The position numbers and the translations under genes are program-made. Below the pieces are notes generated by a model. The model saw only the letters and a list, made by a program, of their open reading frames with translations. It was not told where the DNA came from and did not search any database. From positions 10,418,001 through 10,482,000 of the forward strand of contig CM119372.1 in the NCBI GenBank assembly GCA_051294905.1: 64,000 nt of DNA. The letters run 5' to 3'. Source of the DNA: Botryllus schlosseri (taxonomy: Eukaryota). Positions 3,197 through 59,476 of the stretch are shown here, piece by piece; within the stretch, counting starts at the first letter, position 1; the number at the start of each line of letters is the position of its first letter.

Positions 3197-4258
3197 CAAT
3201 GCTCAAAATGAGAGAAACGATATGGGAATCGATGACTCTTCATGGACAGCACAAGAAGTTAACTTCACAGCCCCATGTAGACGAGCTTTCATGGACCTGG
3301 CTATCCAGCTCTGGCCTGAAACCGGCAAGCGAAGGATTCATTTTCGCAGCACAAGACCAATCGCTTCCTACAAAATACTATCGCAAAAGAATTCTGAAGC
3401 AAAACACGGACGGCAAATGCAGAATGTGCCACAACCAAAATGAAACTGTAGCACATCTCATGTCCGGCTGTGGTGCACTTGCAGCTACCGAATACACATG
3501 GAGACACAATAGGATTGGTCACTACATTCATCTTGAATTATGCAAACATTTTAACATCACCACTTCGACAAAAAATTGGTATGATTACAGCCCAGCACCA
3601 GTGACAGAAAACGAACAAGTAAAAATTCTGTGGGATGTACCAGTCATAACTGACCGCGAAATCAGGAGCAACCGCCCGGATATAATCGTCAAACTAAAGA
3701 AGAAAAGAGAATGCTTATTCATTGAACTGGCTGTCCCAGCTGATCACAACCTACTGCAAAAAGAATCAGAAAAATACTCCAAATACGCAGACCTCAAAAT
3801 GGAATGTGAGAAAATGTGGCGATGCAAAATAAACATTGTACCGATAGTCATTGGTGCTACAGGGGTCGTGAGCAAAAAACTCATGAGGCATATCCAACAA
3901 ATTCCGGGTAACGTTCGATTCGACATGATCCAGAAAATCACATTATTGGGCACTGTGCACATTCTTCGGAAGGCCTTGAATGCACCACTGGACTAAAATT
4001 ACACTTGTGAATCACAGCATAATTTCTGTAATTTCGATTCTTCGTCTTCAATCATCTCTACCTCTGCACTGTAACCCTTGCCAATTCTTCATCTGCTGCA
4101 ATTCTGTAATCTGACTTCTCCGTGTATTGCATAGGAATAACAATTTGAATGTATTACTGAAATTTTAAAAATTTACTCCAATCTCGCCATTTTCCTTTGG
4201 GGGCAGGTTGCTCCCCGGATTATGTGTGTATCTACCAGTTTTACTGTGAATAAAGAAT
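3197..4258 (+). mobile_element. 5'-truncated R4/Dong-type non-LTR retrotransposon (restriction-like endonuclease class)
   Basis: Contains the ORF at 3199-3996, then a 3' UTR with AATAAA at ~4248. 17-bp TSD ATAATAATAATGCATAA at 3180-3196 and 4259-4275. Confidence 0.85.
3199..3996 (+). CDS. C-terminal 265 aa of the non-LTR ORF: CCHC zinc knuckle plus RLE endonuclease; RT domain lost by truncation
   Basis: CRMC...H..SGC knuckle, RHN motif, ILWD, and RPDII...IELAVP...KYSKY (PD-(D/E)xK-type RLE). AAQDQSLPT is typical of R4/Dong-like ORFs. The frame is uninterrupted. Confidence 0.88.
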   Translation: MLKMRETIWESMTLHGQHKKLTSQPHVDELSWTWLSSSGLKPASEGFIFAAQDQSLPTKYYRKRILKQNTDGKCRMCHNQNETVAHLMSGCGALAATEYTWRHNRIGHYIHLELCKHFNITTSTKNWYDYSPAPVTENEQVKILWDVPVITDREIRSNRPDIIVKLKKKRECLFIELAVPADHNLLQKESEKYSKYADLKMECEKMWRCKINIVPIVIGATGVVSKKLMRHIQQIPGNVRFDMIQKITLLGTVHILRKALNAPLD

Positions 4259-26499: not shown

Positions 26500-26854
26500 C
26501 TCGTTGGGCATTCGCCGAAGGGGGATCAGCGACAATATCCTCAAAATCAAGTTTTTGAACGTATAGTCTCTTTCTATAAAAAGAATGGATAGAGCTGATA
26601 GCTGATCATCATTCATGGTAGAACGTAACTAAGATTTTATCAGTTTTAGCTTTGAGTAGCTCCTCTCACAGCTCGCAATTGATACACCAATAATGGTTAG
26701 ACAAAGTTTCAGACACGAGCGTAAACATGGTGTCAAATCAAGTAGGTGTGATTTTACTAACCACTGTAAAACATCAAACGCCGTTGCATTACGATCACAC
26801 GTGGTTTCACTGCTCCGCACCAGCCTCCTAAATCTGTCAATATCCGCAGCTAAC
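26500..26854 (-). pseudogene. hAT transposase C-terminal dimerisation domain remnant (ZMYM1-like), cut at the palindrome insertion
   Basis: LKLCLTIIGVSIASCERSYSKLKLIKS*LRSTMNDDQLSALSILFIERD matches the hATC consensus SCERSFSKLKLIKxYLRSTM. Confidence 0.8.
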
Positions 26855-29800
26855 AGTAGTATATAGTTTGGGCGATCGACGCCCATTCTCGATTTATAAA
26901 GAACAAACAAACATTATCAAGATAATAAACAGTGTAAGAATTAGCTCATTCTCAATTTTGCAGCAATACTTTTATGACCTTGTGTGCGGCAATAAAAAAA
27001 GGGGGAATAATTAGCGATAGAGAGAAAACGAACAAAGAATCTGGATTGACCTTTGTACTCAGACATGAGACTGGAGTACTTCTACTTGTACTTTTCCACT
27101 CGCCTCCTGATTATAATACATTGTAATTTTACTGTATTTTTCCACGATTCACAGCTGACTTCGGTCGTACACGACGGTGATCATAGTTGCCTGCCCTGAC
27201 CTGTTGTTCCGTGGTCCAATTTAGTGGCTTGGGAACAATAACCCGTAAAACTGGTTGACTTGTTGTTCCGCGGTTGATTCATTTTCGTGTACGGTGGGTC
27301 ATAGGAATAATTGCCGGTCGTGACGTCAGTATAGTTTTCTTCTGATCCATGAGATCCTGGTGCGTGTTTTAGGTGTCTATACGTTCGGCTGTGCATAGTG
27401 ACGCATGTAGTCTGTTCCATACTGTCGTACTTGCTCTTGCTTTGTTGTCGACTTAAATAGTAAGGAGAAATGTTCTGGTTATAAATATGTGTGTCATTTT
27501 GAGTCATATCGAGAACCAGAATGTCGTGTATTAGAAATAGGTATTAGGCGCCCCCGACATAGATTAACTTGAATAAAGTACCATTTAGAATATAATAAGT
27601 AATTAAAGAAATAGCTCATTCTCAATTTGACTCGCATCAACGTGTTAATTTCCGATATTGTAGTAATTGGTGCAAGCAAAAACTGCTGTTCCACACCTTT
27701 ACCGCTTTCTAGCGTCTTAGGACAGACAGTCCCAACCAAACAATGTGATGGGTTCTTTTTACTGCTTCACGGTTGGTCAAGCGTAATCATCCCGGTGTCT
27801 GCAAATGATATTCAATTTACCACGGGATATTAATTTTGTATGCTGTACATGATATACAACTTGAATCGATCTGTTGGCGAACTAATGCTTTCCCCGTCTG
27901 TAACATACACATATCGATCACGAGCTCACCACGCACTTTTCGTTCGAGGGCGACTCATTTCGCTGCAGACAATCAGTTGTGTTCGCGTGTATCGTAACAT
28001 ATCCTCAAGACTTGTTATGCCAACACCTCCACGCATATTTACAATATCATACTAAGGAACTATTGCTTCGACAGCCACGCACTATCGCTCGAAGTCGACA
28101 AATTTCGCTACAGACAGTCAGTTGTGTTCACGTATGTGTCGTAAATATATCCTCAACACATGCTATGCCAATACCTCCAAGCATATTTGCATCATACTTA
28201 GGGTTCTGGTCAGGCTGATTTAAATCATCACGTGTCGACAATCGATCGAAGCCCGTCAACTGGTATTTTGAAAGCTAGCGGTATGGTGTATTATTGTGTA
28301 TGGATTGGTGCGGTATTAGAATTGTGGTTACGGCTCGTTGGCGGTGCGAGGATCAGGTTTATAGTATACTATAACTACTTAGCTCGGATACGACGCGCTG
28401 CTATCGTTGCTTTGTCCAAGACCTAATTCACGATAATCAATCTCGCTGTCGAAAATGACATGCGGCCGCGTAGACTGCATAGCGCCATTTTGTTTTGTGA
28501 TCCATCCTGCTGTGCCGAGGATCGAAACATATCCTCAACACATGCCAACACCTCCAAGCATATTTGCAGCATCATACTACGGATATATTGACTCGGCAGA
28601 GTGTTACCGCCAGAGAATTGCTGTGTCACGTCTTCGGGCCTTGCATTTTCCGCTCGGTAACTGCGAGTACGATGTTATTTCAATTGTCCACGAAACGAAT
28701 CGGGGTAGCTCGTTTCATTCGAAATCGGAATCCACTGCGACTATAGGATTGCAAAATCAAAGTCCAAAAAATCCGACTGGCACGTAAAGTACTGGTTTCT
28801 CCATATATTAGGCTGGGTAAAATGTAACATAAATCCAACTCTCAAAGACACTGCTGTAAGGGGAGTGTCGTTGTACATTAATTTGCGTACAGCGAAACTT
28901 TGTATGCGGTGGTGCAATAATGAGGATGAATTGTGCCAGATCACGTGAGGCAATCTAACCTTCTTTCGGTGAGGTGTAAAGATGAGCGGGGAGATTTCGA
29001 AATCTGACTCCACCCCGACTCGGGTTGCTAAATCAAAGTCCAAAAAATCCGGCTGGCTCGTAAAGTCCTGTTATTTCCACATGTTGTGAGGGTAAAATAC
29101 AGCATAAATCCGACTCTCAAGGCCATTTGGCCGCATCCAGACTGGCTTCGCTGAAAACTGATGAAATCTGCGCCGGGTCCGGAGATGTTTCGTGACCTCC
29201 TCCGTCCAGACAAGATTGTTCTGCTGTAATATAGGTGTCGTTGTATAATAATTTACGCCCAAGAAGACTTGGTATCGACCCTTTGGCGGAATTCTGTTTG
29301 GTTCGTCTGTACAGGTGTTATTAGTGCGATCAGATTTGGCGCCTCAAGGAGTATATTGGTAAAAATCACACAACGATGACAATAACTTTACCGGTCAACA
29401 TACGGTCAACGATGCGGTGTGATGTACGTAAATCAGCTGTGATCAATCGAGCGTGACACAATCGCTGTCAGTCATCAATCTGCGACTTGACAAAACTCGC
29501 GTTTTTTGGGTTGACAGCAACGCGATATATTTGATGTCCCCGTCGACCCTCCTAATAGGGTTACCATGCGGCCTCATTTAGGGGAGCATATGTCCTCCAT
29601 TTCCCAGATATGTCACCCAATTCACCTAAATGTACTCTCTTTCTGTCAGTTTGTCCTCCTTGTTAGCTCAACATTTCCAAAAAAAAAACACCACAAGTAA
29701 CGCAAAATGTGGGCCTAGATTACGAAAAGTCGGGTACGTAGCCAAATCGGAAAAATGACCCTATGATGGTATTGTGCAGGCTATTACGTGGATACGTGGG

Positions 29801-29895
29801 CGTGTGTAAACATGTGAATAGTAAAAGCGCCCCAAACTACCGTGAAAAAAGATCGAGCGCACTCGACCATGACGGGGCCACCTTAGTACAGCCAA

Positions 29896-30288
29896 ATGAT
29901 CCCGTGTCGTACCGGGAATAGCCGAGGTGGTGGTACATCATTCTCACAAAATGTACTTTGGAACGCGTGTGAAATCGACATTGTCCGCTACTCGACTGAC
30001 GCAAGTCGCCACTGCAGTCCCTCTCTGTGTATACACAATGTGCTGAGCACTGCAGATCCAGACGAGACTACGCATTCTGGCGAGGTTATCGAGATAGCTG
30101 GAGCGATTTACAACACATGCTACATTTACTTCAAACGGAATGACAAAATATGGTTTTGGAGTACTCAAGTAGTTTTAAGGGAATGTCAGTATCGTGATAT
30201 CGCTTTCTATCCTAATTATAAAAGAGTAGGTCCCCATAAAACTGTCGAGCTCAAGCACGTTGGTAACTGTGATAGTAGACAAAACTGA
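29896..30288 (+). CDS. Hypothetical 130-aa ORF in the left arm (mirror copy 37406-37798, minus), convergent with the IAP
   Basis: Second-longest ORF in the element. Weak resemblance to BRO-N (DKIWFWSTQVVLRECQY). Presence in both arms is not independent evidence of coding. Confidence 0.3.
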   Translation: MIPCRTGNSRGGGTSFSQNVLWNACEIDIVRYSTDASRHCSPSLCIHNVLSTADPDETTHSGEVIEIAGAIYNTCYIYFKRNDKIWFWSTQVVLRECQYRDIAFYPNYKRVGPHKTVELKHVGNCDSRQN

Positions 30289-30529
30289 CTCGAGTACCTC
30301 AGAAATAGTGACTGTATTTCGTTGCTGACCACGCGCCTGCTTATTCACACCGACTGACTCTCCTAGTAAGCAACTGCGCCCCCGTCATCTTCTTATTGCT
30401 CAAATAATTTTACAATTCACGAAATCCAATCTCATTTGTCGATAGTTTTATCAGAACAAAAGTCACAGTTACACAAGTCTCGTAAATAGGTGTCGATACA
30501 CTACAATCGTTTTATCGCCACTATTCAAC

Positions 30530-31708
30530 TCATAGCCCGATCACACGACTGACGTTTCCGCAGATCAATTTTTGACGTTTGATCAACTCTTGCCTGGTTA
30601 TGGGGTTTCTAATCACAGGGCGATTGAGATTAGGGTGTGTCTTTTCGATACGTTGCGCAAACTCGATACCTTTCGTTCGGAGTACGTATTCACACTGCGG
30701 AAACCATTTTGCATGTTCTGTCCAAACCTCGTCTTCACGGTCCCAACGAAGCCCGCCGTCACAGTAAAAGCATTTGGTTCTGTCCGAATCAACGTAGTAA
30801 AACCCCGCTTTTGCTAACTGTTCAACACTAGCTCTAATTTTATTCGGTTCCCAGCCCTTGTCGAACGTTGCGATTCTTTTTGACAACGACGACATGAGAG
30901 GGTTCACGGGTTTAAGACAAGGAAATAGTTGCTCAAGACATCGCTTTTCGTCCTCGGAGGGTTCCTCTGGTTCTTGCAGATGTAAAGTGAGACGTCGTAT
31001 TTTGTCGTCAAGCAACTTATCCAAATTGTCTCGTTCGTACTCGGTTAACGCCACATTCCCCGAATCGTCGCCACGTGCGAAACAACAATCCGAGCGATAC
31101 GTCAAGTGTATTTCAGATATATCGTCTGTAGGCCTCCAATTGCGTAGAACGCCGGAGCAGTTGAAGCACTGCGTTCTGTCCAGGTCACCGAGGTAGAATA
31201 AACCTTGTTTTGCCAACTCGCCGACCGCCCGTGGTATGGGATAGCTGGGCCATTTCTCAAAGGTTTCGCGACGCTCCGACTCCTTTCGCAAGTCGAGATT
31301 CCTAACCCGATACTCGTGCTCCTGATCAACGATATTCGCAAAGTTGATGTTGGCGTTTCCAGCGGCTTTACACTGTCTCAGTAAACTTTTGAAATTCGAT
31401 TTCACAATAGGTATGTTCAACGCGTCTCGTACACAATTCGCGTCATGACGCCGTGCACTCGACCCGGTCCATCTTTCGAGGTACGCACTGCACCCAAAGC
31501 ATTTGATTTTGTCTTCAAATCCTAGCCAGTAGTATCCCTCAGACGCTAAATCGGTGCGTGTTGCGTATGATACTTTAGAGAATTTGGCGAACGTGGCGAG
31601 TCTGTATAATTCAGTGCGGTGTGAACCGGAAGCGATATACACTCGTTTCTGTCCGGGCGGATCAGAGTATCTCTCCATTGACGTTATGCCAAGCTCTTTC
31701 ATAAACAT
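30530..31708 (-). CDS. Inhibitor of apoptosis (IAP/BIRC-like) protein, 392 aa, three BIR repeats, no RING; copy A
   Basis: RLATF...CFGC...H...C; RRETFEKWP...LAKQGLFY...CFNC-x16-H-x6-C; RIATF...LAKAGFYY...CFYCDGGL...EHAKWFPQC. Single uninterrupted ORF. Confidence 0.93.
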   Translation of the reverse strand: MFMKELGITSMERYSDPPGQKRVYIASGSHRTELYRLATFAKFSKVSYATRTDLASEGYYWLGFEDKIKCFGCSAYLERWTGSSARRHDANCVRDALNIPIVKSNFKSLLRQCKAAGNANINFANIVDQEHEYRVRNLDLRKESERRETFEKWPSYPIPRAVGELAKQGLFYLGDLDRTQCFNCSGVLRNWRPTDDISEIHLTYRSDCCFARGDDSGNVALTEYERDNLDKLLDDKIRRLTLHLQEPEEPSEDEKRCLEQLFPCLKPVNPLMSSLSKRIATFDKGWEPNKIRASVEQLAKAGFYYVDSDRTKCFYCDGGLRWDREDEVWTEHAKWFPQCEYVLRTKGIEFAQRIEKTHPNLNRPVIRNPITRQELIKRQKLICGNVSRVIGL

Positions 31709-34455
31709 GGAGTACTAAGACAGAGCTTTTTGTGTCTAAACGTGTCCCATAGGTCAACCGAGTCGGCTCACACATATATTCCTAGTTTATCCTTGAGAGC
31801 TGTATAGATTACCGGTAGCTGTACTTTTATGGCTAATTGACAACCGTTAGCTGTCGCTATTGCACCATTTACATATGTTTTTACCAGGAGCGGGCAACTT
31901 CTGCAATCCGCGGGGTGTGTATAGCAGAGTACCTTTGCGGTGCGTATTGCTGAATCGATGCATTTTTCGACCACCGATCAACATATACAAGGAATAAATC
32001 GTATTCAATCAATGTATTTTAGCAACAGCAATGTCACTACAAAGTCATATCTCGCCGATAATAACGAGGACAATGTGGATTTGAGAACCGTATTTTTATA
32101 CAGGCACCGCCATGTCTGCTTCTCCCTAATCAATTAACACACGGTGCAATACTTAAATAAGATTTCATAGTGGTCTATAAGCCTGATACCCTAAATTGAC
32201 AGAGATATCAATTCATTACAGTTGTTTTCTAACGACGCTACAGACAAGTATCAGTAAACACAAAACGAATTGTCACACTGTTGCGTCAATTCACCGACGA
32301 CTCAGTATGAGACACGCTCGACCAACGAATATGCATGGGACAACCGAAACAGGTGACCTTGCGTGGTGGGTATTTTCGATAACACCGATACGGCAACTTT
32401 ATTCTCTCTACTGGCAATGTGATGGAGAGCGGCTTAATTCATCAGACAAAGGCTGGAAGCAACAACTAGCAAAGACAAATCTAATGGCCACACCGACATT
32501 CACAGGTATTCGATAGACCCGATCATACCGAGGTCATCCCACTTCTGTAATGGCACGGGTACGAAGCATTTTGAACGGTGTTGCTCGGTCGTGGTTTTTG
32601 GCCTTCCAAGACCTCTGTTAGCATCAGTCTATCTCACTGTTGGAGTGCCAATGTCAAACGTCGTAATTGCGATCACTCGCTCATGTGTAGAATATAGAAA
32701 TTGACGCCTGTACTATTTGCACGACCTCATGGCTTTGGTAAACTTACTAAAGCGGAAAGTCACTGCCAAGTTGAACATTGATTGATCGTTCTCTTGTTAG
32801 CGTCGATATTCGCTCGTACGTGCTTTCATGTCTTTGAATTTTTGTTATCGTCGAGTGTGGTCATAAATAGACAGGGGGACAAATTTGATGCGTTCAACAC
32901 AATACGCGTTTACCACATCTCATTCCGGACCGTAACCGATCGTTGACCGAGCCTACGATAAACGTCGCTTTTTACTCATAGGTAAGCAGATGATCTGTGA
33001 AAACACAGGCGCTAACGTGTCATTTCGTTATTCCTTCAACGTCACATGACCGCCTATGAAGGCTTTTTGGGTGCCCACCAATACAGTGTTGAAACGTGAT
33101 CCATAGTAGTTTACACCTGGTGTGGAGCAGCGGAGCGGGTGCAGAAAGTAAATTAGACAACACAAACCAGTTGACTACATCGATGAATATACGAGGGCTC
33201 ATCAATTTTGTCAAGTGACTTTTGAATGGATGTTATTTTTGCCAAATAAACCCCCACTCTGTTTGTAGTTTGAAATAGTAACGTAATTAGTGGTTTTTCC
33301 GTTGGGTTAAACGCACTTTTGAACACGAAGTATATTGGCAAAATCGAGTGTGACACAAACGGTGTCAGTCGTCAATCTCCTGTTTGACTAAACTCACATA
33401 TTCGAGTGGGTTGACAGCAATGCGATACATTTGATGTTCACATCGATCCCTATATTTATAGGGTTGTCCTCCTCCTTTTCCCAAATATGTACAACCTTCG
33501 CCAAAATGTGTTCCTTTTTTGTAAATTTGTCCTCATTTTCAACTTAAAATAACAAAAAAAACCACGAATAACGCGAAATGTAGGTCTGGTCGATTTCGGT
33601 GAGTGACCTTTCATTTAGCTAACTCGCACAACACAAGTAATTGACAGGTATTTCGGTAGTCGAGTCAGATGAAATGACATTGTTTTATAGTCAATCTAAT
33701 GAAATTAGCGGTATAGATATAAAAATACGTCCTCCCCAATCGTAACTTGCAACCTGTGAAAAACGTGTACCGCAAACTATCCCCAACACCCCCAACAAAA
33801 CATAGTTGCGAAAAAATATCATACTATGGACGTATTGACTCGGCGGAGTGCTACCGTGAGAGAAATGCTGTTTGACCCCATCGACCTAGCCTTGGATTTA
33901 CCGTTCGAAAAATTCCACCAGTAGAAGTTGTGATCGAGTGTCGCAATCAACGTCAGCCACGCTCCATCAATCTGTTGCTTTGACAAAACTTGTACGTATA
34001 CACCAGAGATGAGCATTGATTAGGATTTAGAAAAAAAAGTATTTGTGCAATTTTGCTGAATTAGGATTGCATTAGGTTTTGAGATTGATTTACTATGTCG
34101 TACGGGCAATTACTACCGAGCCCCGTCGTGACGATATCGGATTAATCAGTCGTCGAACGACAAGTTAGGGCTAACCGTTTATACTCCTAGTTTATTCTTG
34201 AAAGCTCTATAGATTACTGGTTAGCTGTATTGTTGTGGGCGACTGAAAACAGTTAGTTGTCGCTATTGTACGATTTACACTTTGTGTTATACATTTTTTG
34301 TTACCACCACGAACTAGGAGATCAATCACGACGACGGGCAACTACTCCCAATTGGCGGAATACTGTTTGATTCATTTGTATATTCAGCTTTAGCACCACA
34401 AGAAGTATATTAGAAGTTTATGATTGAATACAATCTTATCCATCAAACAACAAAC

Positions 34456-37400
34456 AAATAACATCCATTCAAAAGTCACTTGACAAAATTGATGAGCCCT
34501 CGTATATTCATCGATGTAGTCAACTGGTTTGTGTTGTCTAATTTACTTTCTGCACCCGCTCCACTGCTCCACACCAGGTGTAAACTACTATGGATCACGT
34601 TTCAACACTGTATTGGTGGGCACCCAAAAAGCCTTCATAGGCGGTCATGTGACGTTGAAGGAATAACGAAATGACACGTTAGCGCCTGTGTTTTCACAGA
34701 TCATCTGCTTACCTATGAGTAAAAAGCGACGTTTATCGTAGGCTCGGTCAACGATCGGTTACGGTCCGGAATGAGATGTGGTAAACGCGTATTGTGTTGA
34801 ACGCATCAAATTTGTTCCCCTGTCTATTTATGACCACACTCGACGATAACAAAAATTCAAAGACATGAAAGCACGTACGAGCGAATATCGACGCTAACAA
34901 GAGAACGATCAATCAATGTTCAACTTGGCAGTGACTTTCCGCTTTAGTAAGTTTACCAAAGCCATGAGGTCGTGCAAATAGTACAGGCGTCAATTTCTAT
35001 ATTCTACACATGAGCGAGTGATCGCAATTACGACGTTTGACATTGGCACTCCAACAGTGAGATAGACTGATGCTAACAGAGGTCTTGGAAGGCCAAAAAC
35101 CACGACCGAGCAACACCGTTCAAAATGCTTCGTACCCGTGCCATTACAGAAGTGGGATGACCTCGGTATGATCGGGTCTATCGAATACCTGTGAATGTCG
35201 GTGTGGCCATTAGATTTGTCTTTGCTAGTTGTTGCTTCCAGCCTTTGTCTGATGAATTAAGCCGCTCTCCATCACATTGCCAGTAGAGAGAATAAAGTTG
35301 CCGTATCGGTGTTATCGAAAATACCCACCACGCAAGGTCACCTGTTTCGGTTGTCCCATGCATATTCGTTGGTCGAGCGTGTCTCATACTGAGTCGTCGG
35401 TGAATTGACGCAACAGTGTGACAATTCGTTTTGTGTTTACTGATACTTGTCTGTAGCGTCGTTAGAAAACAACTGTAATGAATTGATATCTCTGTCAATT
35501 TAGGGTATCAGGCTTATAGACCACTATGAAATCTTATTTAAGTATTGCACCGTGTGTTAATTGATTAGGGAGAAGCAGACATGGCGGTGCCTGTATAAAA
35601 ATACGGTTCTCAAATCCACATTGTCCTCGTTATTATCGGCGAGATATGACTTTGTAGTGACATTGCTGTTGCTAAAATACATTGATTGAATACGATTTAT
35701 TCCTTGTATATGTTGATCGGTGGTCGAAAAATGCATCGATTCAGCAATACGCACCGCAAAGGTACTCTGCTATACACACCCCGCGGATTGCAGAAGTTGC
35801 CCGCTCCTGGTAAAAACATATGTAAATGGTGCAATAGCGACAGCTAACGGTTGTCAATCAGCCATAAAAGTACAGCTACCGGTAATCTATACAGCTCTCA
35901 AGGATAAACTAGGAATATATGTGTGAGCCGACTCGGTTGACCTATGGGACACGTTTAGACACAAAAAGCTCTGTCTTAGTACTCCATGTTTATGAAAGAG
36001 CTTGGCATAACGTCAATGGAGAGATACTCTGATCCGCCCGGACAGAAACGAGTGTATATCGCTTCCGGTTCACACCGCACTGAATTATACAGACTCGCCA
36101 CGTTCGCCAAATTCTCTAAAGTATCATACGCAACACGCACCGATTTAGCGTCTGAGGGATACTACTGGCTAGGATTTGAAGACAAAATCAAATGCTTTGG
36201 GTGCAGTGCGTACCTCGAAAGATGGACCGGGTCGAGTGCACGGCGTCATGACGCGAATTGTGTACGAGACGCGTTGAACATACCTATTGTGAAATCGAAT
36301 TTCAAAAGTTTACTGAGACAGTGTAAAGCCGCTGGAAACGCCAACATCAACTTTGCGAATATCGTTGATCAAGAGCACGAGTATCGGGTTAGGAATCTCG
36401 ACTTGCGAAAGGAGTCGGAGCGTCGCGAAACCTTTGAGAAATGGCCCAGCTATCCCATACCACGGGCGGTCGGCGAGTTGGCAAAACAAGGTTTATTCTA
36501 CCTCGGTGACCTGGACAGAACGCAGTGCTTCAACTGCTCCGGCGTTCTACGCAATTGGAGGCCTACAGACGATATATCTGAAATACACTTGACGTATCGC
36601 TCGGATTGTTGTTTCGCACGTGGCGACGATTCGGGGAATGTGGCGTTAACCGAGTACGAACGAGACAATTTGGATAAGTTGCTTGACGACAAAATACGAC
36701 GTCTCACTTTACATCTGCAAGAACCAGAGGAACCCTCCGAGGACGAAAGGCGATGTCTTGAGCAACTATTTCCTTGTCTTAAACCCGTGAACCCTCTCAT
36801 GTCGTCGTTGTCAAAAAGAATCGCAACGTTCGACAAGGGCTGGGAACCGAATAAAATTAGAGCTAGTGTTGAACAGTTAGCAAAAGCGGGGTTTTACTAC
36901 GTTGATTCGGACAGAACCAAATGCTTTTACTGTGACGGCGGGCTTCGTTGGGACCGTGAAGACGAGGTTTGGACAGAACATGCAAAACGGTTTCCGCAGT
37001 GTGAATACGTACTCCGAACGAAAGGTATCGAGTTTGCGCAACGTATCGAAAAGACACACCCTAATCTCAATCGCCCTGTGATTAGAAACCCCATAACCAG
37101 GCAAGAGTTGATCAAACGTCAAAAATTGATCTGCGGAAACGTCAGTCGTGTGATCGGGCTATGAGTTGAATAGTGGCGATAAAACGATTGTAGTGTATCG
37201 ACACCTATTTACGAGACTTGTGTAACTGTGACTTTTGTGCTGATAAAACTATCGACAAATGAGATTGGATTTCGCGTATTGTAAAATTATTTGAGCAATA
37301 AGAAGATGACGGGGGCGCAGTTGCTTACTAGGAGAGTCAGTCGGTGTGAATAAGCAGGCGCGTGGTCAGCAACGAAATACAGTCACTATTTCTGAGGTAC

Positions 37401-40400
37401 TCGAGTCAGTTTTGTCTACTATCACAGTTACCAACGTGCTTGAGCTCGACAGTTTTATGGGGACCTACTCTTTTATAATTAGGATAGAAAGCGATATCAC
37501 GATACTGACATTCCCTTAAAACTACTTGAGTACTCCAAAACCATATTTTGTCATTCCGTTTGAAGTAAATGTAGCATGTGTTGTAAATCGCTCCAGCTAT
37601 CTCGATAACCTCGCCAGAATGCGTAGTCTCGTCTGGATCTGCAGTGCTCAGCACATTGTGTATACACAGAGAGGGACTGCAGTGGCGACTTGCGTCAGTC
37701 GAGTAGCGGACAATGTCGATTTCACACGCGTTCCAGAGTACATTTTGTGAGAATGATGTACCACCACCTCGGCTATTCCCGGTACGACACGGGATCATTT
37801 GGCTGTACTAAGGTGGCCCCGTCATGGTCGAGTGCGCTCGATCTTTTTTCACGGTAGTTTGGGGCGCTTTTACTATTCACATGTTTACACACGCCCACGT
37901 ATCCACGTAATAGCCTGCACAATACCATCATAGGGTCATTTTTCCGATTTGGCTACGTACCCGACTTTTCGTAATCTAGGCCCACATTTTGCGTTACTTG
38001 TGGTGTTTTTTTTTGGAAATGTTGAGCTAACAAGGAGGACAAACTGACAGAAAGAGAGTACATTTAGGTGAATTGGGTGACATATCTGGGAAATGGAGGA
38101 CATATGCTCCCCTAAATGAGGCCGCATGGTAACCCTATTAGGAGGGTCGACGGGGACATCAAATATATCGCGTTGCTGTCAACCCAAAAAACGCGAGTTT
38201 TGTCAAGTCGCAGATTGATGACTGACAGCGATTGTGTCACGCTCGATTGATCACAGCTGATTTACGTACATCACACCGCATCGTTGACCGTATGTTGACC
38301 GGTAAAGTTATTGTCATCGTTGTGTGATTTTTACCAATATACTCCTTGAGGCGCCAAATCTGATCGCACTAATAACACCTGTACAGACGAACCAAACAGA
38401 ATTCCGCCAAAGGGTCGATACCAAGTCTTCTTGGGCGTAAATTATTATACAACGACACCTATATTACAGCAGAACAATCTTGTCTGGACGGAGGAGGTCA
38501 CGAAACATCTCCGGACCCGGCGCAGATTTCATCAGTTTTCAGCGAAGCCAGTCTGGATGCGGCCAAATGGCCTTGAGAGTCGGATTTATGCTGTATTTTA
38601 CCCTCACAACATGTGGAAATAACAGGACTTTACGAGCCAGCCGGATTTTTTGGACTTTGATTTAGCAACCCGAGTCGGGGTGGAGTCAGATTTCGAAATC
38701 TCCCCGCTCATCTTTACACCTCACCGAAAGAAGGTTCGATTGCCTCACGTGATCTGGCACAATTCATCCTCATTATTGCACCACTGCATACAAAGTTTCG
38801 CTGTACGCAAATTAATGTACAACGACACTCCCCTTACAGCAGTGTCTTTGAGAGTTGGATTTATGTTACATTTTACCCAGCCTAATATATGGAGAAACCA
38901 GTACTTTACGTGCCAGTCGGATTTTTTGGACTTTGATTTTGCAATCCTATAGTCGCAGTGGATTCCGATTTCGAATGAAACGAGCTACCCCGATTCGTTT
39001 CGTGGACAATTGAAATAACATCGTACTCGCAGTAACCGAGCGGAAAATGCAAGGCCCGAAGACGTGACACAGCAATTCTCTGGCGGTAACACTCTGCCGA
39101 GTCAATATATCCGTAGTATGATGCTGCAAATATGCTTGGAGGTGTTGGCATGTGTTGAGGATATGTTTCGATCCTCGGCACAGCAGGATGGATCACAAAA
39201 CAAAATGGCGCTATGCAGTCTACGCGGCCGCATGTCATTTTCGACAGCGAGATTGATTATCGTGAATTAGGTCTTGGACAAAGCAACGATAGCAGCGCGT
39301 CGTATCCGAGCTAAGTAGTTATAGTATACTATAAACCTGATCCTCGCACCTCCAACGAGCCGTAACCACAATTCTAATACCGCACCAATCCATACACAAT
39401 AATACACCATACCGGTAGCTTTCAAAATACCAGTTGACGGGCTTCGATCGATTGTCGACACGTGATGATTTAAATCAGCCTGACCAGAACCCTAAGTATG
39501 ATGCAAATATGCTTGGAGGTATTGGCATAGCATGTGTTGAGGATATATTTACGACACATACGTGAACACAACTGACTGTCTGTAGCGAAATTTGTCGACT
39601 TCGAGCGATAGTGCGTGGCTGTCGAAGCAATAGTTCCTTAGTATGATATTGTAAATATGCGTGGAGGTGTTGGCATAACAAGTCTTGAGGATATGTTACG
39701 ATACACGCGAACACAACTGATTGTCTGCAGCGAAATGAGTCGCCCTCGAACGAAAAGTGCGTGGTGAGCTCGTGATCGATATGTGTATGTTACAGACGGG
39801 CAAAGCATTAGTTCGCCAACAGATCGATTCAAGTTGTATATCATGTACAGCATACAAAATTAATATCCCGTGGTAAATTGAATATCATTTGCAGACACCG
39901 GGATGATTACGCTTGACCAACCGTGAAGCAGTAAAAAGAACCCATCACATTGTTTGGTTGGGACTGTCTGTCCTAAGACGCTAGAAAGCGGTAAAGGTGT
40001 GGAACAGCAGTTTTTGCTTGCACCAATTACTACAATATCGGAAATTAACACGTTGATGCGAGTCAAATTGAGAATGAGCTATTTCTTTAATTACTTATTA
40101 TATTCTAAATGGTACTTTATTCAAGTTAATCTATGTCGGGGGCGCCTGATACCTATTTCTAATACACGACATTCTGGTTCTCGATATGACTCAAAATGAC
40201 ACACATATTTATAACCAGAACATTTCTCCTTACTATTTAAGTCGACAACAAAGCAAGAGCAAGTACGACAGTATGGAACAGACTACATGCGTCACTATAC
40301 ACAGCCGAACGTATAGACACCCAAAACACGCACCAGGATCTCATGGATCAGAAGAAAACTATACTGACGTCACGACCGGCAATTATTCCTATGACCCACC

Positions 40401-40824
40401 GTACACGAAAATGAATCAACCGCGGAACAACAAGTCAACCAGTTTTACGGGTTATTGTTCCCAAGCCACTAAATTGGACCACGGAACAACAGGTCAGGGC
40501 AGGCAACTATGATCACCGTCGTGTACGACCGAAGTCAGCTGTGAATCGTGGAAAAATACAGTAAAATTACAATGTATTATAATCAGGAGGCGAGTGGAAA
40601 AGTACAAGTAGAAGTACTCCAGTCTGAGTACAAAGGTCAATCCAGATTCGTTTTCTCTCTATCGTTAATTATTCCCCCTTTTTTTATTGCCGCACACAAG
40701 GTCATAAAAGTATTGCTGCAAAATTGAGAATGAGCTAATTCTTACACTGTTTATTATCTTGATAATGTTTGTTTGTTCTTTATAAATCGCGAATGGGCGT
40801 CGATCGCCCAAACATATTACTACT
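34456..40824. repeat. Right inverted arm (6369 bp)
   Basis: Mirror of 26855-33238. The 1217-bp spacer is 33239-34455. Confidence 0.97.
35986..37164 (+). CDS. IAP protein, 392 aa; copy B (K255R and W335R relative to copy A)
   Basis: Mirror copy of 30530-31708 with an intact frame. HAKRFP replaces HAKWFP. Confidence 0.93.
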   Translation: MFMKELGITSMERYSDPPGQKRVYIASGSHRTELYRLATFAKFSKVSYATRTDLASEGYYWLGFEDKIKCFGCSAYLERWTGSSARRHDANCVRDALNIPIVKSNFKSLLRQCKAAGNANINFANIVDQEHEYRVRNLDLRKESERRETFEKWPSYPIPRAVGELAKQGLFYLGDLDRTQCFNCSGVLRNWRPTDDISEIHLTYRSDCCFARGDDSGNVALTEYERDNLDKLLDDKIRRLTLHLQEPEEPSEDERRCLEQLFPCLKPVNPLMSSLSKRIATFDKGWEPNKIRASVEQLAKAGFYYVDSDRTKCFYCDGGLRWDREDEVWTEHAKRFPQCEYVLRTKGIEFAQRIEKTHPNLNRPVIRNPITRQELIKRQKLICGNVSRVIGL

Positions 40825-42345
40825 GCTAACTCCCATTTACCAATACTGATCCTAATCGAAAGCTATTGTTGCCCTGGTTGATTCCGGAAATACAATTTAA
40901 AATCTGGTCCGGGCAACGGAACCACCCCGAAATAGCTGTCAAAGTTTGAAAATCGGCATTATTCCGAATAATAATAATCGCTCGATACAATTTCCATTAT
41001 CATGGTCAATTGGTCAATGTGTTGCGGCGCCCCGATTGTTCGGAACATTCGGCCTTGACGGCTATTTCGGAGTCGTTCCATTGCGATGCTCACATTTTTA
41101 TGTGTGTCTTCGGAATCAGTGCGACACTAGCTTTTGATTGAGATCAGTTTGATTTAATTTTGGCTCTCGGGACTACCAGTTACTCTGCTTTAACCGACTG
41201 TGTATAGGCTACTGTGCACTCCTGTGCAGCCCCATATGCCGTCCCCTTGGAGCCTGCCGCTCCTGGCGCAGAGCATAACCGCCAAGTGGCTGCTACGCCA
41301 CTGCACTGATAATAATCTGACGAATATTGGTGAATGCTGCTACTCGATCTATTTTGAGAATAGTCTCGCGGGCTACTCATCTGGTCCTCGCGGGCTACCT
41401 GGGGGCCGCGGGTACCGCGTTCGTGACCCCTGCAGTAAAGGGTGTATTTGTAGGACCTTAAATCAGAACCCTCACCAAAAAAAATACATGACTCTCTTTC
41501 ATTGAAGTTGCATCTAAATTTCTTGGAAATACTGAGGGTCCTGATTATTTGGAGGTGTTTCGTATCATATACGGACCTAAACGGGCATAAGCGCCCTTGA
41601 TACAGCCGTTTTTGAGTAAAATTTTTATTCGTTTTTTTGCGAAAAATTGTGACGTGATGAGTGAATTCTGACGGCAAATTCAGAATCAGCATCGTCAAAT
41701 TAGGTAAATTCAATTAACCGGTCTAAAAAAAAGTTGAAAAATGTCTACCAGTGATATTCAAAAGAGCTTAGCTCAAGACTCATTTCTAAAACTTCAGATC
41801 TTGGTTAATGGACATTGGACATTGCGATGGGTATATGGCCGTCCGTTAGTCTGCGATGGTATACGGCAATTCCGTTGTCTACGGATATCAGCTTACAGTT
41901 TATACTTAACTGGCACTTCCGCAGTAGCTGACACGAACGTCCTGCGTTCTGTGTAGTTCTTGACTGGCAGTTCAATAGAGACGACAACAATTGCCTTTTC
42001 CAGATATATTGTACGGGTCGATAGTAATTCGGATAGTTTAAGCAGTAAGTACAGCGTACATGAGTCTCGTATATAAATCAGAGTCCATTATACGATATGC
42101 GCTAGGTAATATACCAGCGATAAGTCACGTGATATAGAATTATACCATAACAGATAGGAGAGAAATGGAGCCAGAGCTCCTACAACATGCAATAATAGAA
42201 ACTAGAAAGGCAGCATCTGGACGAGCTATAAGAATCCCAAATCAGAATTCGTAGATTCAACTCAAAACAACTTCAACACACCACAAGACTGCGATACAAC
42301 GAAATGATAGGAAAGGTGTCGAAACGACTTGGAGTAGACTTGGAC

Positions 42346-53583: not shown

Positions 53584-54612
53584 GTCTGTTGATGATTCCG
53601 AATGTGGGAAGTTCTAGCAGTTGGGAGACCTTGCCAAGCTTGTTTAAATAGTCTTGCAGGTTAGAGGCGATATAACAAAAATGGCCATACTAACAAATTG
53701 TGTCGAACACAACTAGTATCCATATTGCTCAATGGTAGTGGTACAACTCTCAAAGTTACCTCATTATACGCAAATTGGATCTTTGGCCGTACTCCTGCTC
53801 CATGTCAATTCAAAAGAAATATACTGAAAATTCAAACCCAGCCCTACTAGAGCCCACAGCCTGACACTCCTGCCCTGGCCAAATCCCATAGTCGTGGATC
53901 TGACTCCTTGATCCACATTACTTACTGCATGCACGCAATATTAATTCATATCTTGTGTACCTTAATTGTAAGAAAGGTGCAGTAACACAGTTTATAGAGC
54001 CGTATACAAATCTATACATATGATTCTGAGCATACTCTGCACTCCACGGATGAGTTGAACGCATTCGAAGAACGGTAGAAGACCTCAAGACAGCATCACG
54101 TTGGACAATAAGAGTGGTTTTGACAAAACTTCGAAAATTAGTGTGAACCCAAGTTTCGATGCATTCATCCTCTAGGTACGGTATATTTCAGAAAGTCTTC
54201 GTAGATGCCTAGCAGGCAATGATTCTTGCTGTAATTCGCATTCCACATCAAAATGAGAACAGATATCAATCGTAAACCAAATATAATGTTCTGACTGATA
54301 TCACTGTGAATAACCATTGAACTACGAAATGACATTTGTATATTCATGTAGACAGAAGAGTAAGGACAGTTACACCAGTTGTGCTATACAACATACGCAT
54401 TCATGAACATTGCTTGGTATAGGCATTGCTTTGACTTGATTGAGTTCTATCTATTTCATCAAGGCATGACCAAGTCAAATAAAACCGAACGTCCTTATCC
54501 ATCCGGCACGGTATCGTCAGCGGAACCAGGATTTGCAACACTGAGAAATCGCAGTTGAGGATTCCAACTGCTCCCAGTATTGCAGAATTGAAATTGATTG
54601 GTGCTTATAATC

Positions 54613-57600
54613 TCATGTGTAGTATGCAGGCTTCTTCACAGTGAGACCATGCTCTGCAAGCGTTGGAGCCAGATCCTCCAGCGTCAAGACATACCTGGAC
54701 ATCCCCAACAATGAAGATATTGTTGACGGAGAACACAAACACTCTTACTTCTTTTCCTTTCCTTTTGCGGGTCGATTTTGGGCACCCTTTAGCTTGTTTG
54801 TTTGAAGAGCATCGTTAATGATGTCAGAGAGGAACTTTTGCGCCGCCAATGCGAGTATTCGTGACCTGGAACAGTCACAGTCAGAACCAATCTTTTCATT
54901 ATTTTCTGTGATTATCCCAATGCAATCATCCATTATTCACTATCTAGTAACTACCAAAGAGAGAACACTGATGATCACGCCGATCGGTTTTATGAGGGAG
55001 CATATTTGAGCGATAGGACTTCATGAGGATTGAATAGTCAATAAAGCAGAATTATTTTTTTTCACATTATCACTGGTCAACACAGTTTTTGTTCACTTCG
55101 ATCAGGCTATTGATTTTGACCAACTTTTGGGCGCTGAATTCAAAAATGACTTCCGTTTTTCTCTATCAAGTCAATTTTTTTGGTTAGGCACCCCCCACAT
55201 TGCCTCAAAACCCACATATTAGCACTACTTTTAATATTATGTGTTTATTGTATAAAACGTTTCAAAAACTACAACCAGTCGAAAGTAAATCATTAGACTT
55301 CAAATAAACATTTGCACTGCTTTATTTGGTTGATTTAAACTGATATTGCTTCTAGAAGACTAGGGTCCAAATTCACGCTAATAACCCATAATTCTGTAGG
55401 TTGTCTAGTCTGATACTCGAGCAATAGTCAGCTAACATATATAAGCTCCAATCTACTCTGGTATCTTATCCCCATCATCTTCAGATGTTGGGGGACATTT
55501 TCTCCTTGGCCATCTCTGACTATGTCAAGGTTTCCAGGGAAACTATCAAGATATTTCAAGTTTTTCTTAAATGTCCGCTGTCCGACATAAACATATGGCA
55601 GTGGCACATGTGTATCCTTATTGTCTGACCACTAGAAAACACAATATTTCAAAGCTGACTCATATGATCCAATTGTGCTCGTGACATTGCAATAATTCAA
55701 TGTTTCTGTATTACTTTTAATGTTTCTGTATTATTCACGAAGACTAACTGAGTGTGCAATTGTTACTGCACCCAAGACGTCGCCAGTGCAATTGTTACTG
55801 CACGCACGACTTTGCCATCTTGAAGAATGGCACACTTTAGGATCTCTTTTGAGCTACCTATAGGCATTTGCCATTCACTGGACTTGTAAATCGGGATTCC
55901 TAACTCCTCCAGTAATCCATGGTAACGGTATCATGCCAATGCCAGTATCACGGCCATTCACAAAGCTACCGAAAGTAGGCCTATGAAGAAGAGGCTGTTT
56001 CTCCTGATCAAAAGTGAGATACCTTCTCTACCTTGCCAAGTAATCTTTTCTCACTTCATAAGGATGTTAAAAGTTCCGAAGATTTCTGTTCCAAGTCCCA
56101 AAGCTACGTCATATCAATAACTCGTGTTGATGGACTACTCTACATTCTGAATCAACTTCGATTTCGAACATCTTCATCATTTGACCTGCTATCCCTAAGA
56201 TCTTCATCTTGATCTAAATTGTCGAGCGTATGGGACTTTCAGGTTACTCTGGATAAGCTGAATGGGGGCATTGGAACTATAGCTGATAGCAAATGTCATG
56301 TTTAATTTTCTTGCCATATCCAGCAGTTTGCATCAAATATGTGTGATAAATATCCTTGGATAATTGCATCCTCTACCAAAAATGGGTGAAAACATCGGCC
56401 TAGATCGATACCAATACCTTTTTCCTACACAATTCAATCGAGTCCTTGACTATATAACTTATTATATGGTAAAAGTGTGGATTTTTATACGGTATGGAAA
56501 AGTAATATGCCTAAAATGAAAATTTGCATATTTTGGGCATATGTCATAGAGCGAAAAGTTGACGTGATAGAAGAAAACCGGTGGCATTTTGGGAATCAGC
56601 ACGCCAAAATTAGCCTAAATCAAGTGTAAAATCAAAGTCAACAGATTTTTTGTTGTAAATTGTTGCCCAGTGTTATGAATAGATTTTATTTTTCGTTGCA
56701 TCATATGTGGAAATTCTTCGCCTCCAGATCGCACTAACTCAACTACAGGCCAGCGCGACTCAATATGTCCATGTCCATGTTGTTTAGCCGAGCAAATTTC
56801 TACATTCTTCATGAGTAGATTAGATTTCATATCCTTTGTTGAATCTAAACTAGCTAGCATTCTAGAGAAGCCTTATTCTACAGCTGCTATTGCTATGTGC
56901 CACTTGAAGCAAGGAAAATAAGTTCTGGTGTCATTCGAGCTTGGGCACATGGACCTAACATCATTTTACCTTGGTGGCAGTAAAAGCTGTGATTTGGCTC
57001 AACTTGATCAGATTTTGTCAGTGTTGGGATGACTCGAGTCACCTTTTTCGTATAACTTGAATTGACTCGAGTCACTTTGCAAAAATGACTTGACTTGACT
57101 CGACGTTTCAAAAATGCAGATTGACTCGTGACTCGAAGCAAAATTCACGAGTCAATTTCAAGTCATCAAGTAATCGATGTCGACTAAATCGCCGTATCGT
57201 GTATACGATCGGATTATTAACCGATCACTCAATGATTGTACGACTGTACGTTTTACCGAGCCTTCATTGTTACATCAATAATGAATTGATTGTTAACGCA
57301 GTGATCGGAGCGTATAGCTTACATTGTCGTAATCCTGCTCAATTCAACCAACCCTCTTGCGTGCTTTAAATGGAACGAATATTGTCCATACGTTTATAGT
57401 TGTATATCATGGATATATATGTGGGTAGGGTATGGCTCCATATCATTTTATTGAACCTTCTGATGCTTCATATGCTATCCTATATTTTGGCTGGAAATTT
57501 TAGATCAGGGGTGGGCAGAGCTGCTTAACGCGTGAGCCGCATGTCAAAATTTGTTGCCTTAGAAGACTCACAACACAAAAATTGATATATACTACTATAT

Positions 57601-59476
57601 TTCGTCACAAGGAAATGTAGAGTATCGAATGAAGTTTATTATTGTGTGGTATCAGACGATGCGTCTCCACCTAGGCTGCAAGGTGTTTGAAATCGGACTG
57701 ATATGACGTCAAACCAAACAGTGGGGAGTTCGGTTATCATAATACTTCATAACCATGTCTTTTTTGGGTAACTCTTGGAAATTCAGGTTTTGGTGTTTGG
57801 TTTTGTAATGACGTTTCAATTATAGCTGTGTGATTATTGGGCGAATCTTGACGGAAAAGGCACAGTGGGTTACGTTCATTATCACCGAATGCACATTGCA
57901 CACTCATTGAAGAGTCGCAATCAAAGACTCAAAGAGCATGCAGCACGCGGCTCGTGAGGCGTAGTTTTCCCTCCCCTATTATAGACTGAGGCTAGACCGC
58001 TATACTTGTGTAGTTTGACAGTACTACGTATGCATGAGCGATAGAGCACCTTCTTGCGTGTATTATCAACTCTTTATTCGTTCCTTGATTCAGAATAAAT
58101 GGGGACTCCATCCATATTTAAAACAGTTAGCAAAATGCAATGACCTTGAATTATGTATCGTACTTTGAAAATTCAACTTGACTCGAATAGTGACTTGACT
58201 CGTGACTTGACTCGAGTCACCTCAAAAAATCGGGTGACTTGACTTGACTCGAGTCACCTTCGAAAATCGAGTGACTTGACTTGACTCGAGTCAAAATCTG
58301 AAATGACTCGTGACTCGAAGGTAGTCACTTGATCCCAACACTGGATTTTGTGATTTGAATAAAGTGACTCAAGTTCACTAGTATAATAGCATAATGCTTA
58401 AATTGAAGGTAGATTCGAAAACCATATTAGCCCATTATCTCAGGACCCTTGCAAGAAAAATACTATTTCCACAGGGTGGTATATGGAAAATAAAACTTGG
58501 ATTATTATGTAGATTGGATTAAATAGATATCCCACTGAGAAGTATATATCTAATCATAAAAATGTTCCATGTAAAGAGCGTATAGCTGCTTGAAGCAACT
58601 GGGTTCTATATACCTAAATAACGGTATATATTATCAAATCTTTGAAAAGAAAGCCTTACATTCTTGGGTCTGTGGTGTCTACACCAGCTTTGTTCAAGTA
58701 ATGTGATGCAACGACATCTGGTATCTGAAAAGGAAATCACAAATTTGTGGGCATCATTGTGTAGGAGCACCGGTATTCCAGCGGTATATTACCCTATTCT
58801 ACAATTCCTACTGACTGCGTATCGATTTTCATGAGATACATCAGTAGATAGGGACTTAAATACCACATTGCATAGGGTATTCATTAATCCTAGATCGTAG
58901 CTACTGAAGAATATATAGTTTAAAGTTCTTTTTGCATCGACTTGAGCCTTGTTTCACGGCAGTATGTTCGTTACGCAGTATTAAAATTTGTGTATGTATG
59001 TTGAGCTATGGGTCAGGGTTCCTGCCCTTACACCATTGCTATAATATTTGCATTATAGTGTACTTAGTGAATACTTTGTGACACGACTCCATGTGACTTG
59101 ACTTGACTCGAGTCACCTCTAAATGACACGACTCGGTCAGCTTAAAAATTCGAGCCATTTGACTTGACTCGAGTCAAACGTACATTGACTCGAATTGACT
59201 TGTAGCTCGAAGTCGAAGGTGGTGACTTGATCCCGCCCAACACTGCATGCTGTAAGTTACGTACCAAGGTACCATGCAATCATGCATGTGTTTGAACCCA
59301 GTTCGAAAGCGCATGATTCCCAAGTTTTTTTTTATGGTTTCACTGAGACTTACCGTTGGAGTTATGTCCTCAATTTGTGCAAGAAATTCCGAAATCTCAG
59401 CCTGAGACATCGATCCAGCTTCATCGCCACTGCCTCCATGCGCCGCAGTAGGTGAGGCGTCGGATAGCCCATTCAT
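54613..59476 (-). CDS. TAF10: TFIID subunit 10, 4 exons (59476-59354, 58724-58660, 54865-54749, 54694-54613), 128 aa
   Basis: EFLAQIEDITPT|IPDVVASHYLNKAGVDTTDPRM|SRILALAAQKFLSDIINDALQ...|YVLTLEDLAPTLAEHGLTVKKPAYYT*. GT-AG introns, 387 nt in total. Confidence 0.95.
55071..56672 (-). mobile_element. Internally deleted Chapaev3-like transposon in TAF10 intron 2
   Basis: CACTGGTCAACA...TGTTGCCCAGTG ends with TTAT on both sides. Degraded transposase-like translation at ~56000-56300. Ends shared with 10096-10590. Confidence 0.65.
57019..58343. mobile_element. hAT-type MITE (TIR CAGTGTTGGGAT) with a nested CAGGGG...CCCCTA element at 57506-57978
   Basis: Perfect TIR and perfect 8-bp TSD GATTTTGT, with GACTCGAGTC arrays. 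A further partial end lies at ~59085-59245. Confidence 0.88.

Follow-up and report, generated by a model that had tools for sequence, protein, structure and literature searches.

A RING-less IAP gene is the only recognisable gene of a palindromic, non-autonomous Maverick/Polinton in Botryllus schlosseri

IAPs are used by DNA parasites such as the baculoviruses, whose IAPs usually have two BIRs plus a RING. Linear genomes replicated by protein priming, such as those of adenovirus and phi29, give rise to helper-dependent, defective snap-back genomes by fold-back duplication of one end. On animal mobile elements, IAPs are already known from adintoviruses, which in the sections cited carry accessory IAP and Bcl2 homologues (Starrett et al. 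2021, PMC8502044), and BIR domains are already known from Burro retroelements (PMC6431247). The hallmarks of Mavericks, as given in the sections cited of Barreat and Katzourakis (2021, PMC8097293), are an (AGT)2//(ACT)2 end motif and a 6-bp target-site duplication (TSD). According to the excerpted text of a 2026 survey, IAPs have expanded in many animals mainly through dispersed copies, often without introns, with transposition only suggested (PMC13159474). We found no description in the open-access literature of palindromic Polinton derivatives that lack the core genes and carry an IAP.

Here we describe such an element in a 64,000-nucleotide stretch of the Botryllus schlosseri genome (GenBank assembly GCA_051294905.1, contig CM119372.1, positions 10,418,001 to 10,482,000 of the forward strand), which we call the window. 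The original prediction for this DNA reported a pair of intronless open reading frames (ORFs), each with three BIRs and no RING, and took them for two diverging gene copies. The ORF list and Pfam bear out the pair, at 392 codons each and with no introns, but the two ORFs belong to the arms of one palindrome; both lie within a single multi-copy mobile inverted repeat, a point that the prediction had missed. The unit, 13,970 bp at 26855-40824, has 6.39-kb inverted-repeat arms that are 99.4% identical, differing by 23 substitutions and 5 gaps, and that flank a 1,217-bp spacer (Table 1). AGTAGT opens the element, ACTACT closes it, and GCTAAC stands on both flanks.

Table 1. Features of the palindromic element, in positions of the window
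Feature	Position	Strand	Basis
Left target-site duplication, GCTAAC	26849..26854	+	Element-end inspection
Left arm, begins with the Maverick end motif AGTAGT	26855..33238	-	Arm alignment
IAP ORF, left-arm copy (K255, W335), 3 BIR, no RING	30530..31708	-	ORF list and Pfam
Non-palindromic central spacer, 1,217 bp, common to other family-A elements	33239..34455	.	
Right arm, ACTACT at end; outer ~4 kb largely the C13-element haplotype	34456..40824	+	
IAP ORF, right-arm copy (R255, R335); likely start Met11 at 36016	35986..37164	+	
BIR1 zinc-ligand motif Cx2Cx14Hx3C (Hx3C, tunicate-type state)	36193..36261	+	
BIR2 zinc-ligand motif Cx2Cx16Hx6C	36526..36609	+	
BIR3 zinc-ligand motif Cx2Cx15Hx6C	36922..37002	+	
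Codon 335: CGG (Arg) here, TGG (Trp) in left arm	36988..36990	+	
Weak trace immediately 3' of the stop, possibly of a decayed RING (family A)	37190..37260	+	
Terminal ~247 bp in common with complete P5-type Polintons	40578..40824	-	
Right target-site duplication, GCTAAC	40825..40830	+	Element-end inspection

The window element has ends of the (AGT)2//(ACT)2 type, a 6-bp TSD and terminal inverted repeats, as Polintons do. Neither an ORF nor a remnant of the polymerase, integrase, ATPase, protease or capsid genes was found in it, and tblastn at E<=0.01 detected no remnants of these helper genes in the four satellite elements tested. Because the core genes are absent, we do not class it as an autonomous Polinton: it is a non-autonomous Maverick/Polinton, and the IAP ORF is its sole recognisable gene. 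The same ends recur elsewhere. We examined 22 elements: in 16, an exact 6-bp TSD adjoins the AGTAGT ends, and two further ones resolve to an exact TSD (one of them with its start placed 3 bases in), which brings the count to 18 of 22; of the remaining four, two have one TSD mismatch, one has two, and for one no ends were found. Both arms also contain a short high-copy repeat (35570-35783 and its mirror copy), visible as a peak of depth and with matches beside another Polinton.

The rest of the window holds a spliced host gene at 54454-59515, presumably TAF10-like, with joints at 54691/54746, 54863/58658 and 58724/59354 in runs X15 and X16. Just left of the element, 26629-26913 on the minus strand resembles what we take to be a C-terminal fragment of a hAT transposase. 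A non-LTR retrotransposon tail lies at 3199-3996 on the plus strand (zf-RVT, E 1e-4, under the curated cut-off), and a Fucosyltransferase N-terminal exon (PF17039) at 6722-7291 on the minus strand.

Copies were sought across the 495.5-Mb genome, and because 105 of 451 family-A candidates were scored, the counts for this family are lower bounds. Family A, to which the window element belongs, comprises at least 76 IAP matches at a minimum of 46 loci, at least 30 as inverted pairs. Family B has 41 matches to an IAP that is about 70% identical to that of family A and points inward, on near-perfect palindromes of 14.4-14.8 kb. Beyond the ORF the two families have no DNA in common, and the dispersed copies of both have distinct flanks. 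IAP-less palindromes with family-A ends and intact TSDs are present at C10:4.67 Mb and C3:30.4 Mb; the IAP is therefore dispensable for spread. The relative at C3:30.407-30.447 Mb consists of three tandem 12.9-kb units plus one right arm, with 39.9 kb between its matching duplications. Among 11 elements, the arms of one element are 0.17-4.3 differences per kb apart and the nearest other elements 0.5-78 per kb. Several elements have stops in both of their arms. Satellites without nested insertions are mostly 13.6-15.0 kb long and helpers 15.0-16.4 kb, sizes that would fit a packaging limit. A closing loop of 28-37 nt, mostly with a small inner hairpin, was present at 7 of the 13 family-B loci tested. 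The two orientations of this central loop are uninformative as a sign of flip-flop, the direction in which a palindrome inserts being arbitrary.

Complete Polintons, the putative helpers, are abundant in this genome (144 integrase and 120 capsid matches). Given these matches, the blanks returned for the genome with the Pfam profiles for pPolB (PF03175) and the adenoviral protease (PF00770) are false negatives. We sampled seven Polinton types and compared their ends with those of the IAP elements. Over the first ~245 bases, type P5 matches family A and type P7 matches family B. The first 250 bases of the window element's ends show 0.78-0.96 identity to P5-type ends, against 0.50-0.58 to the six other types, and family-B ends show 0.74-0.80 identity to P7-type ends. 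In its outermost 45 bases, the right end of the window element is identical to one end of the P5 copy at C5:16.11 Mb (45/45); other Polinton types agree at 14-23 of these positions. The window element thus has termini in common with a gene-complete Polinton in this genome, as expected of a Polinton derivative. From these shared ends we infer that the satellites are probably mobilised in trans by the matching Polinton.

The outer 45 bases of P5-type Polintons and family A vary in a cassette-like manner, and in two pairs a helper copy and a satellite copy have identical end variants (45/45). Two other candidates were set aside. Between the type P1 Polinton at C11:4.51 Mb, considered as a helper, and the IAP elements there is no DNA similarity. 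As for the helper itself being the IAP carrier, none of seven P5/P7-type stretches (four with both ends, three incomplete) has this IAP inside, and the one weak match in them (E 0.004) falls outside the element. The complete P1 element (C11:4.507-4.526 Mb) does carry a caspase-domain (C14) gene and an E2 gene, and a type P3 Polinton carries a single-BIR gene. In DNA, the E2 genes of P1 and P2 Polintons resemble the E2 of a third group of IAP carriers, family C (below), at 67-78%, a likeness hinting at more traffic in cargo.

In the IAP ORF, Pfam identifies PF00653 three times (E 9e-46), with the C-C-H-C zinc ligands of the BIRs present; at E<=0.1 it reports neither a RING nor a CARD or UBA family. 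An E3 ligase of this kind would have a C-terminal RING, with UBA and CARD in cIAPs; all that we found of these is a broken RING remnant in family B. The predicted ligand spacings (x14Hx3C, x16Hx6C and x15Hx6C) agree with ours. The description of BIR1 as degenerate is apt for the shortened loop before its His, which is special to this protein, but not for its Hx3C, which is common to tunicate and Endozoicomonas homologues. Translation likely starts at Met11 (36016), because this residue is aligned with the family-B start and one sub-lineage has a stop at codon 10. That stop, directly before Met11, occurs in 1 of 41 copies, and further copies have open frames of 382 aa.

The peptide grooves of the second and third BIRs carry changes that are fixed throughout. 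In BIR2, Ile replaces the Glu or Gln of homologues before the His, and Tyr-Arg replaces His-Phe. In BIR3 of both families, one residue is deleted at the position of cIAP1 C309/XIAP D309, and alignment of the A and B proteins places a second single-residue deletion in the preceding strand. We checked groove positions 306-311, 314, 319 and 323: most are kept, 309 is deleted in all, and the equivalent of W323 is Arg in the right-arm copy. Counting F324 as well, BIR3 retains equivalents of G306, L307, R308, W310, D314, E319, W323 (Arg in the right arm) and F324. A structure model (mean pLDDT 74, rmsd about 1.8 A) predicts that BIR3 adopts the fold of cIAP1 BIR3; it bears on the fold and not on binding. 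The family-wide changes in the BIR3 and BIR2 grooves outweigh W335R in importance.

A RING exon downstream, which the original prediction had named as an alternative, was not convincingly detected in the six frames of the window by a profile that scores a control RING at E=3e-19. At the end of the family-B ORF, a RING remnant is broken over several frames; its frameshift-aware score with a family-C RING query is 76, against a null maximum of 44 among 60 random stretches. The corresponding trace in family A scores 30-41, against null maxima of 37-48. These data show that in family B the RING was lost in place on the element; a spliced RING exon is therefore unlikely.

The two ORF copies differ exactly as predicted, by W335R (30706/36988), K255R (30945/36749) and one silent change (31322/36372). 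Residue 335 is W in 37 of 41 family-A copies, R in 3 and a stop in 1. R335 is found in the right arm of the window element and in the two arms of a C13 element, of which one arm also has a premature stop. Because R stands in both arms of this second element, on another contig, the suspicion of a sequencing error can be dropped. In an alignment of seven arms, the right arm of the window element agrees over its outer ~4 kb with the C13 haplotype, at about 15 differences that are linked, and the left arm tracks C5 elements. In addition, the two window arms are 3.2 differences per kb apart, while the left arm is 2.2 per kb from another element. The window element is therefore mosaic, with parts from two sub-lineages, and the contrast between W and R is a side effect of this mosaicism. 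In the best DNA run only the W allele was found at the site, in 37 of 37 contigs, although contigs drop rare variants. W335 aligns with the HAKW tryptophan of cIAP1 and XIAP BIR3, which upholds its predicted equivalence to XIAP W323, a part of the BIR3 peptide groove in the portion cited of PMC6360406. From this equivalence, Arg at 335 would likely weaken the binding of peptides by BIR3. W335R is a rare inherited variant and likely represents no more than decay.

The best protein matches of the IAP ORF are in Styela, Clavelina, Ciona and Phallusia, with Styela clava P0001 at 45% identity. Searching the genome with the Styela protein gave 26 matches to an intronless IAP of about 580 aa with three BIRs and a RING, which we call family C. 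At the loci fetched (C10:1.09-1.14 Mb, C5:19.55-19.59 Mb, C11:19.50-19.54 Mb and C3:31.12-31.16 Mb), the carriers of this IAP are elements of 40-47 kb that have an IS1595-like transposase as well as gag- and pol-like genes. These elements have short GG..CC ends, with 8-bp duplications that are exact in 3 of 4; their pol is RT-RNaseH-Tpt1 with no integrase match, and LRR and E2 genes are also aboard. In a quick tree search of 33 proteins, in which A+B sit on a long branch, A+B and the IAPs of family C are sisters (SH-aLRT 98), placed among those of Styela. The tree indicates common ancestry of A+B and C, not a direction of transfer.

The phylogenetic check proposed in the original prediction thus came out in part: the mobile IAPs were placed, but the host multi-exon IAP was not recovered, two genome searches with Styela proteins having been swamped by mobile copies. 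Its view of a captured IAP holds as far as carriage by a virus-like element goes, the carrier being a Maverick/Polinton satellite. Direct retroposition from a host gene is at most a candidate origin: the nearest relative of the A/B IAP is itself intronless and mobile, a RING-bearing IAP on a reverse-transcriptase element. The 250 bases past the stop contain no poly(A) tract, and neither AATAAA nor ATTAAA occurs within 1 kb. The A and B IAPs have diverged at 0.59 of silent sites, against 0.74-0.84 (saturated) for the core genes of P5 and P7. This lower divergence, together with the opposite orientation and the unrelated flanks, suggests that the IAP moved from one satellite lineage to another after the split of their helpers, if rates did not differ. 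No relative of the IAP was found among viral contigs, and 14 distant loci match in metagenome contigs. Proteins of Endozoicomonas with three BIRs and a RING (P0010 and P0074) group with tunicate IAPs, suggesting a possible transfer from host to symbiont.

Between the A and B IAPs, dN is 0.167 and dS 1.16, a dN/dS of about 0.14. Variants present in at least two elements have an omega of 0.25-0.38 in family A and 0.15-0.22 in family B (p<=1e-4 at all the transition-bias settings used). Purifying selection acts on inherited variants, and the protein therefore likely serves the element. Private variants of family B have an omega of 0.8-1.2 and differ from the shared ones (Fisher p=2e-6); constraint on shared variants with neutrality of private ones is the pattern expected of a gene that is useful during spread and decays after insertion. 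In family A the private variants have an omega of 0.39-0.58 (p=0.21 against shared variants), in a sample biased by its selection for similarity of the protein. We found no RNA specific to the ORF, which was no deeper than the non-coding arm in X15 and X16; these runs contain spliced transcripts of the organism, as contigs that are a poor measure of level. The raw RNA run X22 has 0 reads on the element, but it also lacks the host gene and so does not bear on expression; none of the runs listed as containing the element is on record as RNA.

We consider it probable that the ORF, as the only recognisable gene of a core-less 14-kb palindrome with Polinton ends, travels on an element that relies on the polymerase and integrase of the matching Polinton for replication and integration, and that the RING-less IAP keeps the cell alive meanwhile. 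The helper's polymerase and integrase would act on the shared ~245-bp ends. The palindrome may have arisen by fold-back copying of one end, and copying from arm to arm would keep the halves uniform, so that the two ORFs would be one gene present twice. The protein would bind caspases or IAP antagonists through BIR3 and the linker region between BIR1 and BIR2, with no ubiquitin-ligase activity, and would shield the cell during the active phase of the element. W335R would be a mildly damaging variant of one sub-lineage, and the arms would differ at this residue because the element is a mosaic.

This reading has competitors. Amplification and assembly are known to yield long near-perfect palindromes, but we give practically no credence to a chimeric fold-back of reads as the source of the inverted duplication: some of the 23 substitutions and 5 gaps between the arms are in common with other loci, the TSDs match on both sides, and the same layout is found at dozens of loci with differing flanks. 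It is also very improbable that the two copies are diverging in function, with a new specificity in the one that has R. R335 is indeed inherited, recurs on another contig and affects a groove residue. However, it is confined to 3 of 41 copies, of which one has a premature stop, while another copy has a stop at this very codon; both arms of the sister element have R; mosaicism explains the difference between the window arms; and the contigs of the best DNA run, which drop rare variants, have W throughout.

What the protein does, and for whom, can be read in two further ways. If the host benefits, the palindromes are a vehicle, and IAP copies are kept for their anti-apoptotic dosage in stress, metamorphosis or regeneration. 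Intact frames (31 of the 41 sampled family-A copies are open from Met11), private family-A variants that look constrained, and the frequency of dispersed IAP expansions in animals, as stated in the text cited of PMC13159474, would all suit such a role. We nevertheless regard it as improbable, since neutral private and constrained inherited variants in family B point to selection during transposition and not at the locus, several elements have stops in both arms, and ORF-specific enrichment of RNA was not found in the X15 and X16 contigs. A stronger competitor, though still an unlikely one, is that the RING-less protein is a decoy or dominant-negative that sequesters antagonists or adaptors, or that interferes with RING-bearing IAPs encoded by the host or by family C, and so tunes immune (NF-kB-type) signalling. 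In all A and B copies the BIR2 and BIR3 grooves are altered, by the Ile/Tyr/Arg changes and the one-residue deletion; UBA and RING are gone as well, yet the protein is under purifying selection. Moreover, tunicates are reported to lack caspase-9 and Apaf-1 (PMC13159474, sections cited), and BIR1 domains bind adaptors, not caspases, in the portion cited of PMC6360406. On the other side are the groove residues that BIR3 retains and its modelled similarity to the fold of cIAP1 BIR3. The decoy reading is compatible with the element part of our preferred explanation, helper-dependent spread of a core-less palindrome.

More tentatively, Polintons may have long-lived satellites: capsid-sized fold-back genomes whose ends track a specific helper, and between whose lineages, and with an unrelated reverse-transcriptase element, an anti-death gene has been traded, the IAP having become RING-less after capture and being selected only in the active phase. 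If selection acts only then, the palindromes would replicate and be expressed outside the chromosome, perhaps in helper particles. This would amount to a satellite-helper system in an animal germline, and would supply a concrete mechanism by which dispersed, intronless IAPs have expanded across animals. The replication of Polintons also becomes testable, because core-less palindromes of helper size, ends that track the helper and cargo selection linked to transmission predict extrachromosomal fold-back intermediates. At least 140 IAP matches in one genome belong to three mobile-element families (76, 41 and 26), with carriers identified for the loci fetched, and gene counts would be inflated wherever such mobile copies are taken for host IAPs. 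By itself, the W335R difference carries little weight.

The window element resembles the Mavericks/Polintons described in the sections cited of PMC8097293 and, for the anole Polinton, PMC3014272, in its ends, its 6-bp TSD and its size of 14-16 kb. It differs from them in that its inverted repeats measure 6.4 kb (91% of the element) and not a few hundred bases, and in that it lacks genes for a polymerase, integrase, ATPase, protease or capsid proteins, its only recognisable gene lying inside the repeats. Adintoviruses likewise have an IAP on a Polinton-type animal element, but in the excerpts of PMC8502044 the elements are gene-complete, whereas the IAP of the window is carried, twice, on a core-less palindrome. 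Burro, the giant Gypsy elements of planarians, are also mobile carriers of apoptosis regulators (BIR and BCL2-like); as presented in the part cited of PMC6431247, however, they are LTR retrotransposons with the BIR within a polyprotein, and here the ORF stands alone on a DNA element. The encoded protein has the same order of three BIRs and the tunicate-type Hx3C of BIR1 as ascidian XIAP/BIRC7-like IAPs, from which it differs by the absence of a UBA-like region and RING, by two single-residue deletions in BIR3 and by its changed BIR2 groove. Its BIR3 is like those of cIAP1 and XIAP in predicted fold and in most groove residues. Unlike snap-back genomes, elements of the window type are integrated and inherited, and they form long-lived families.
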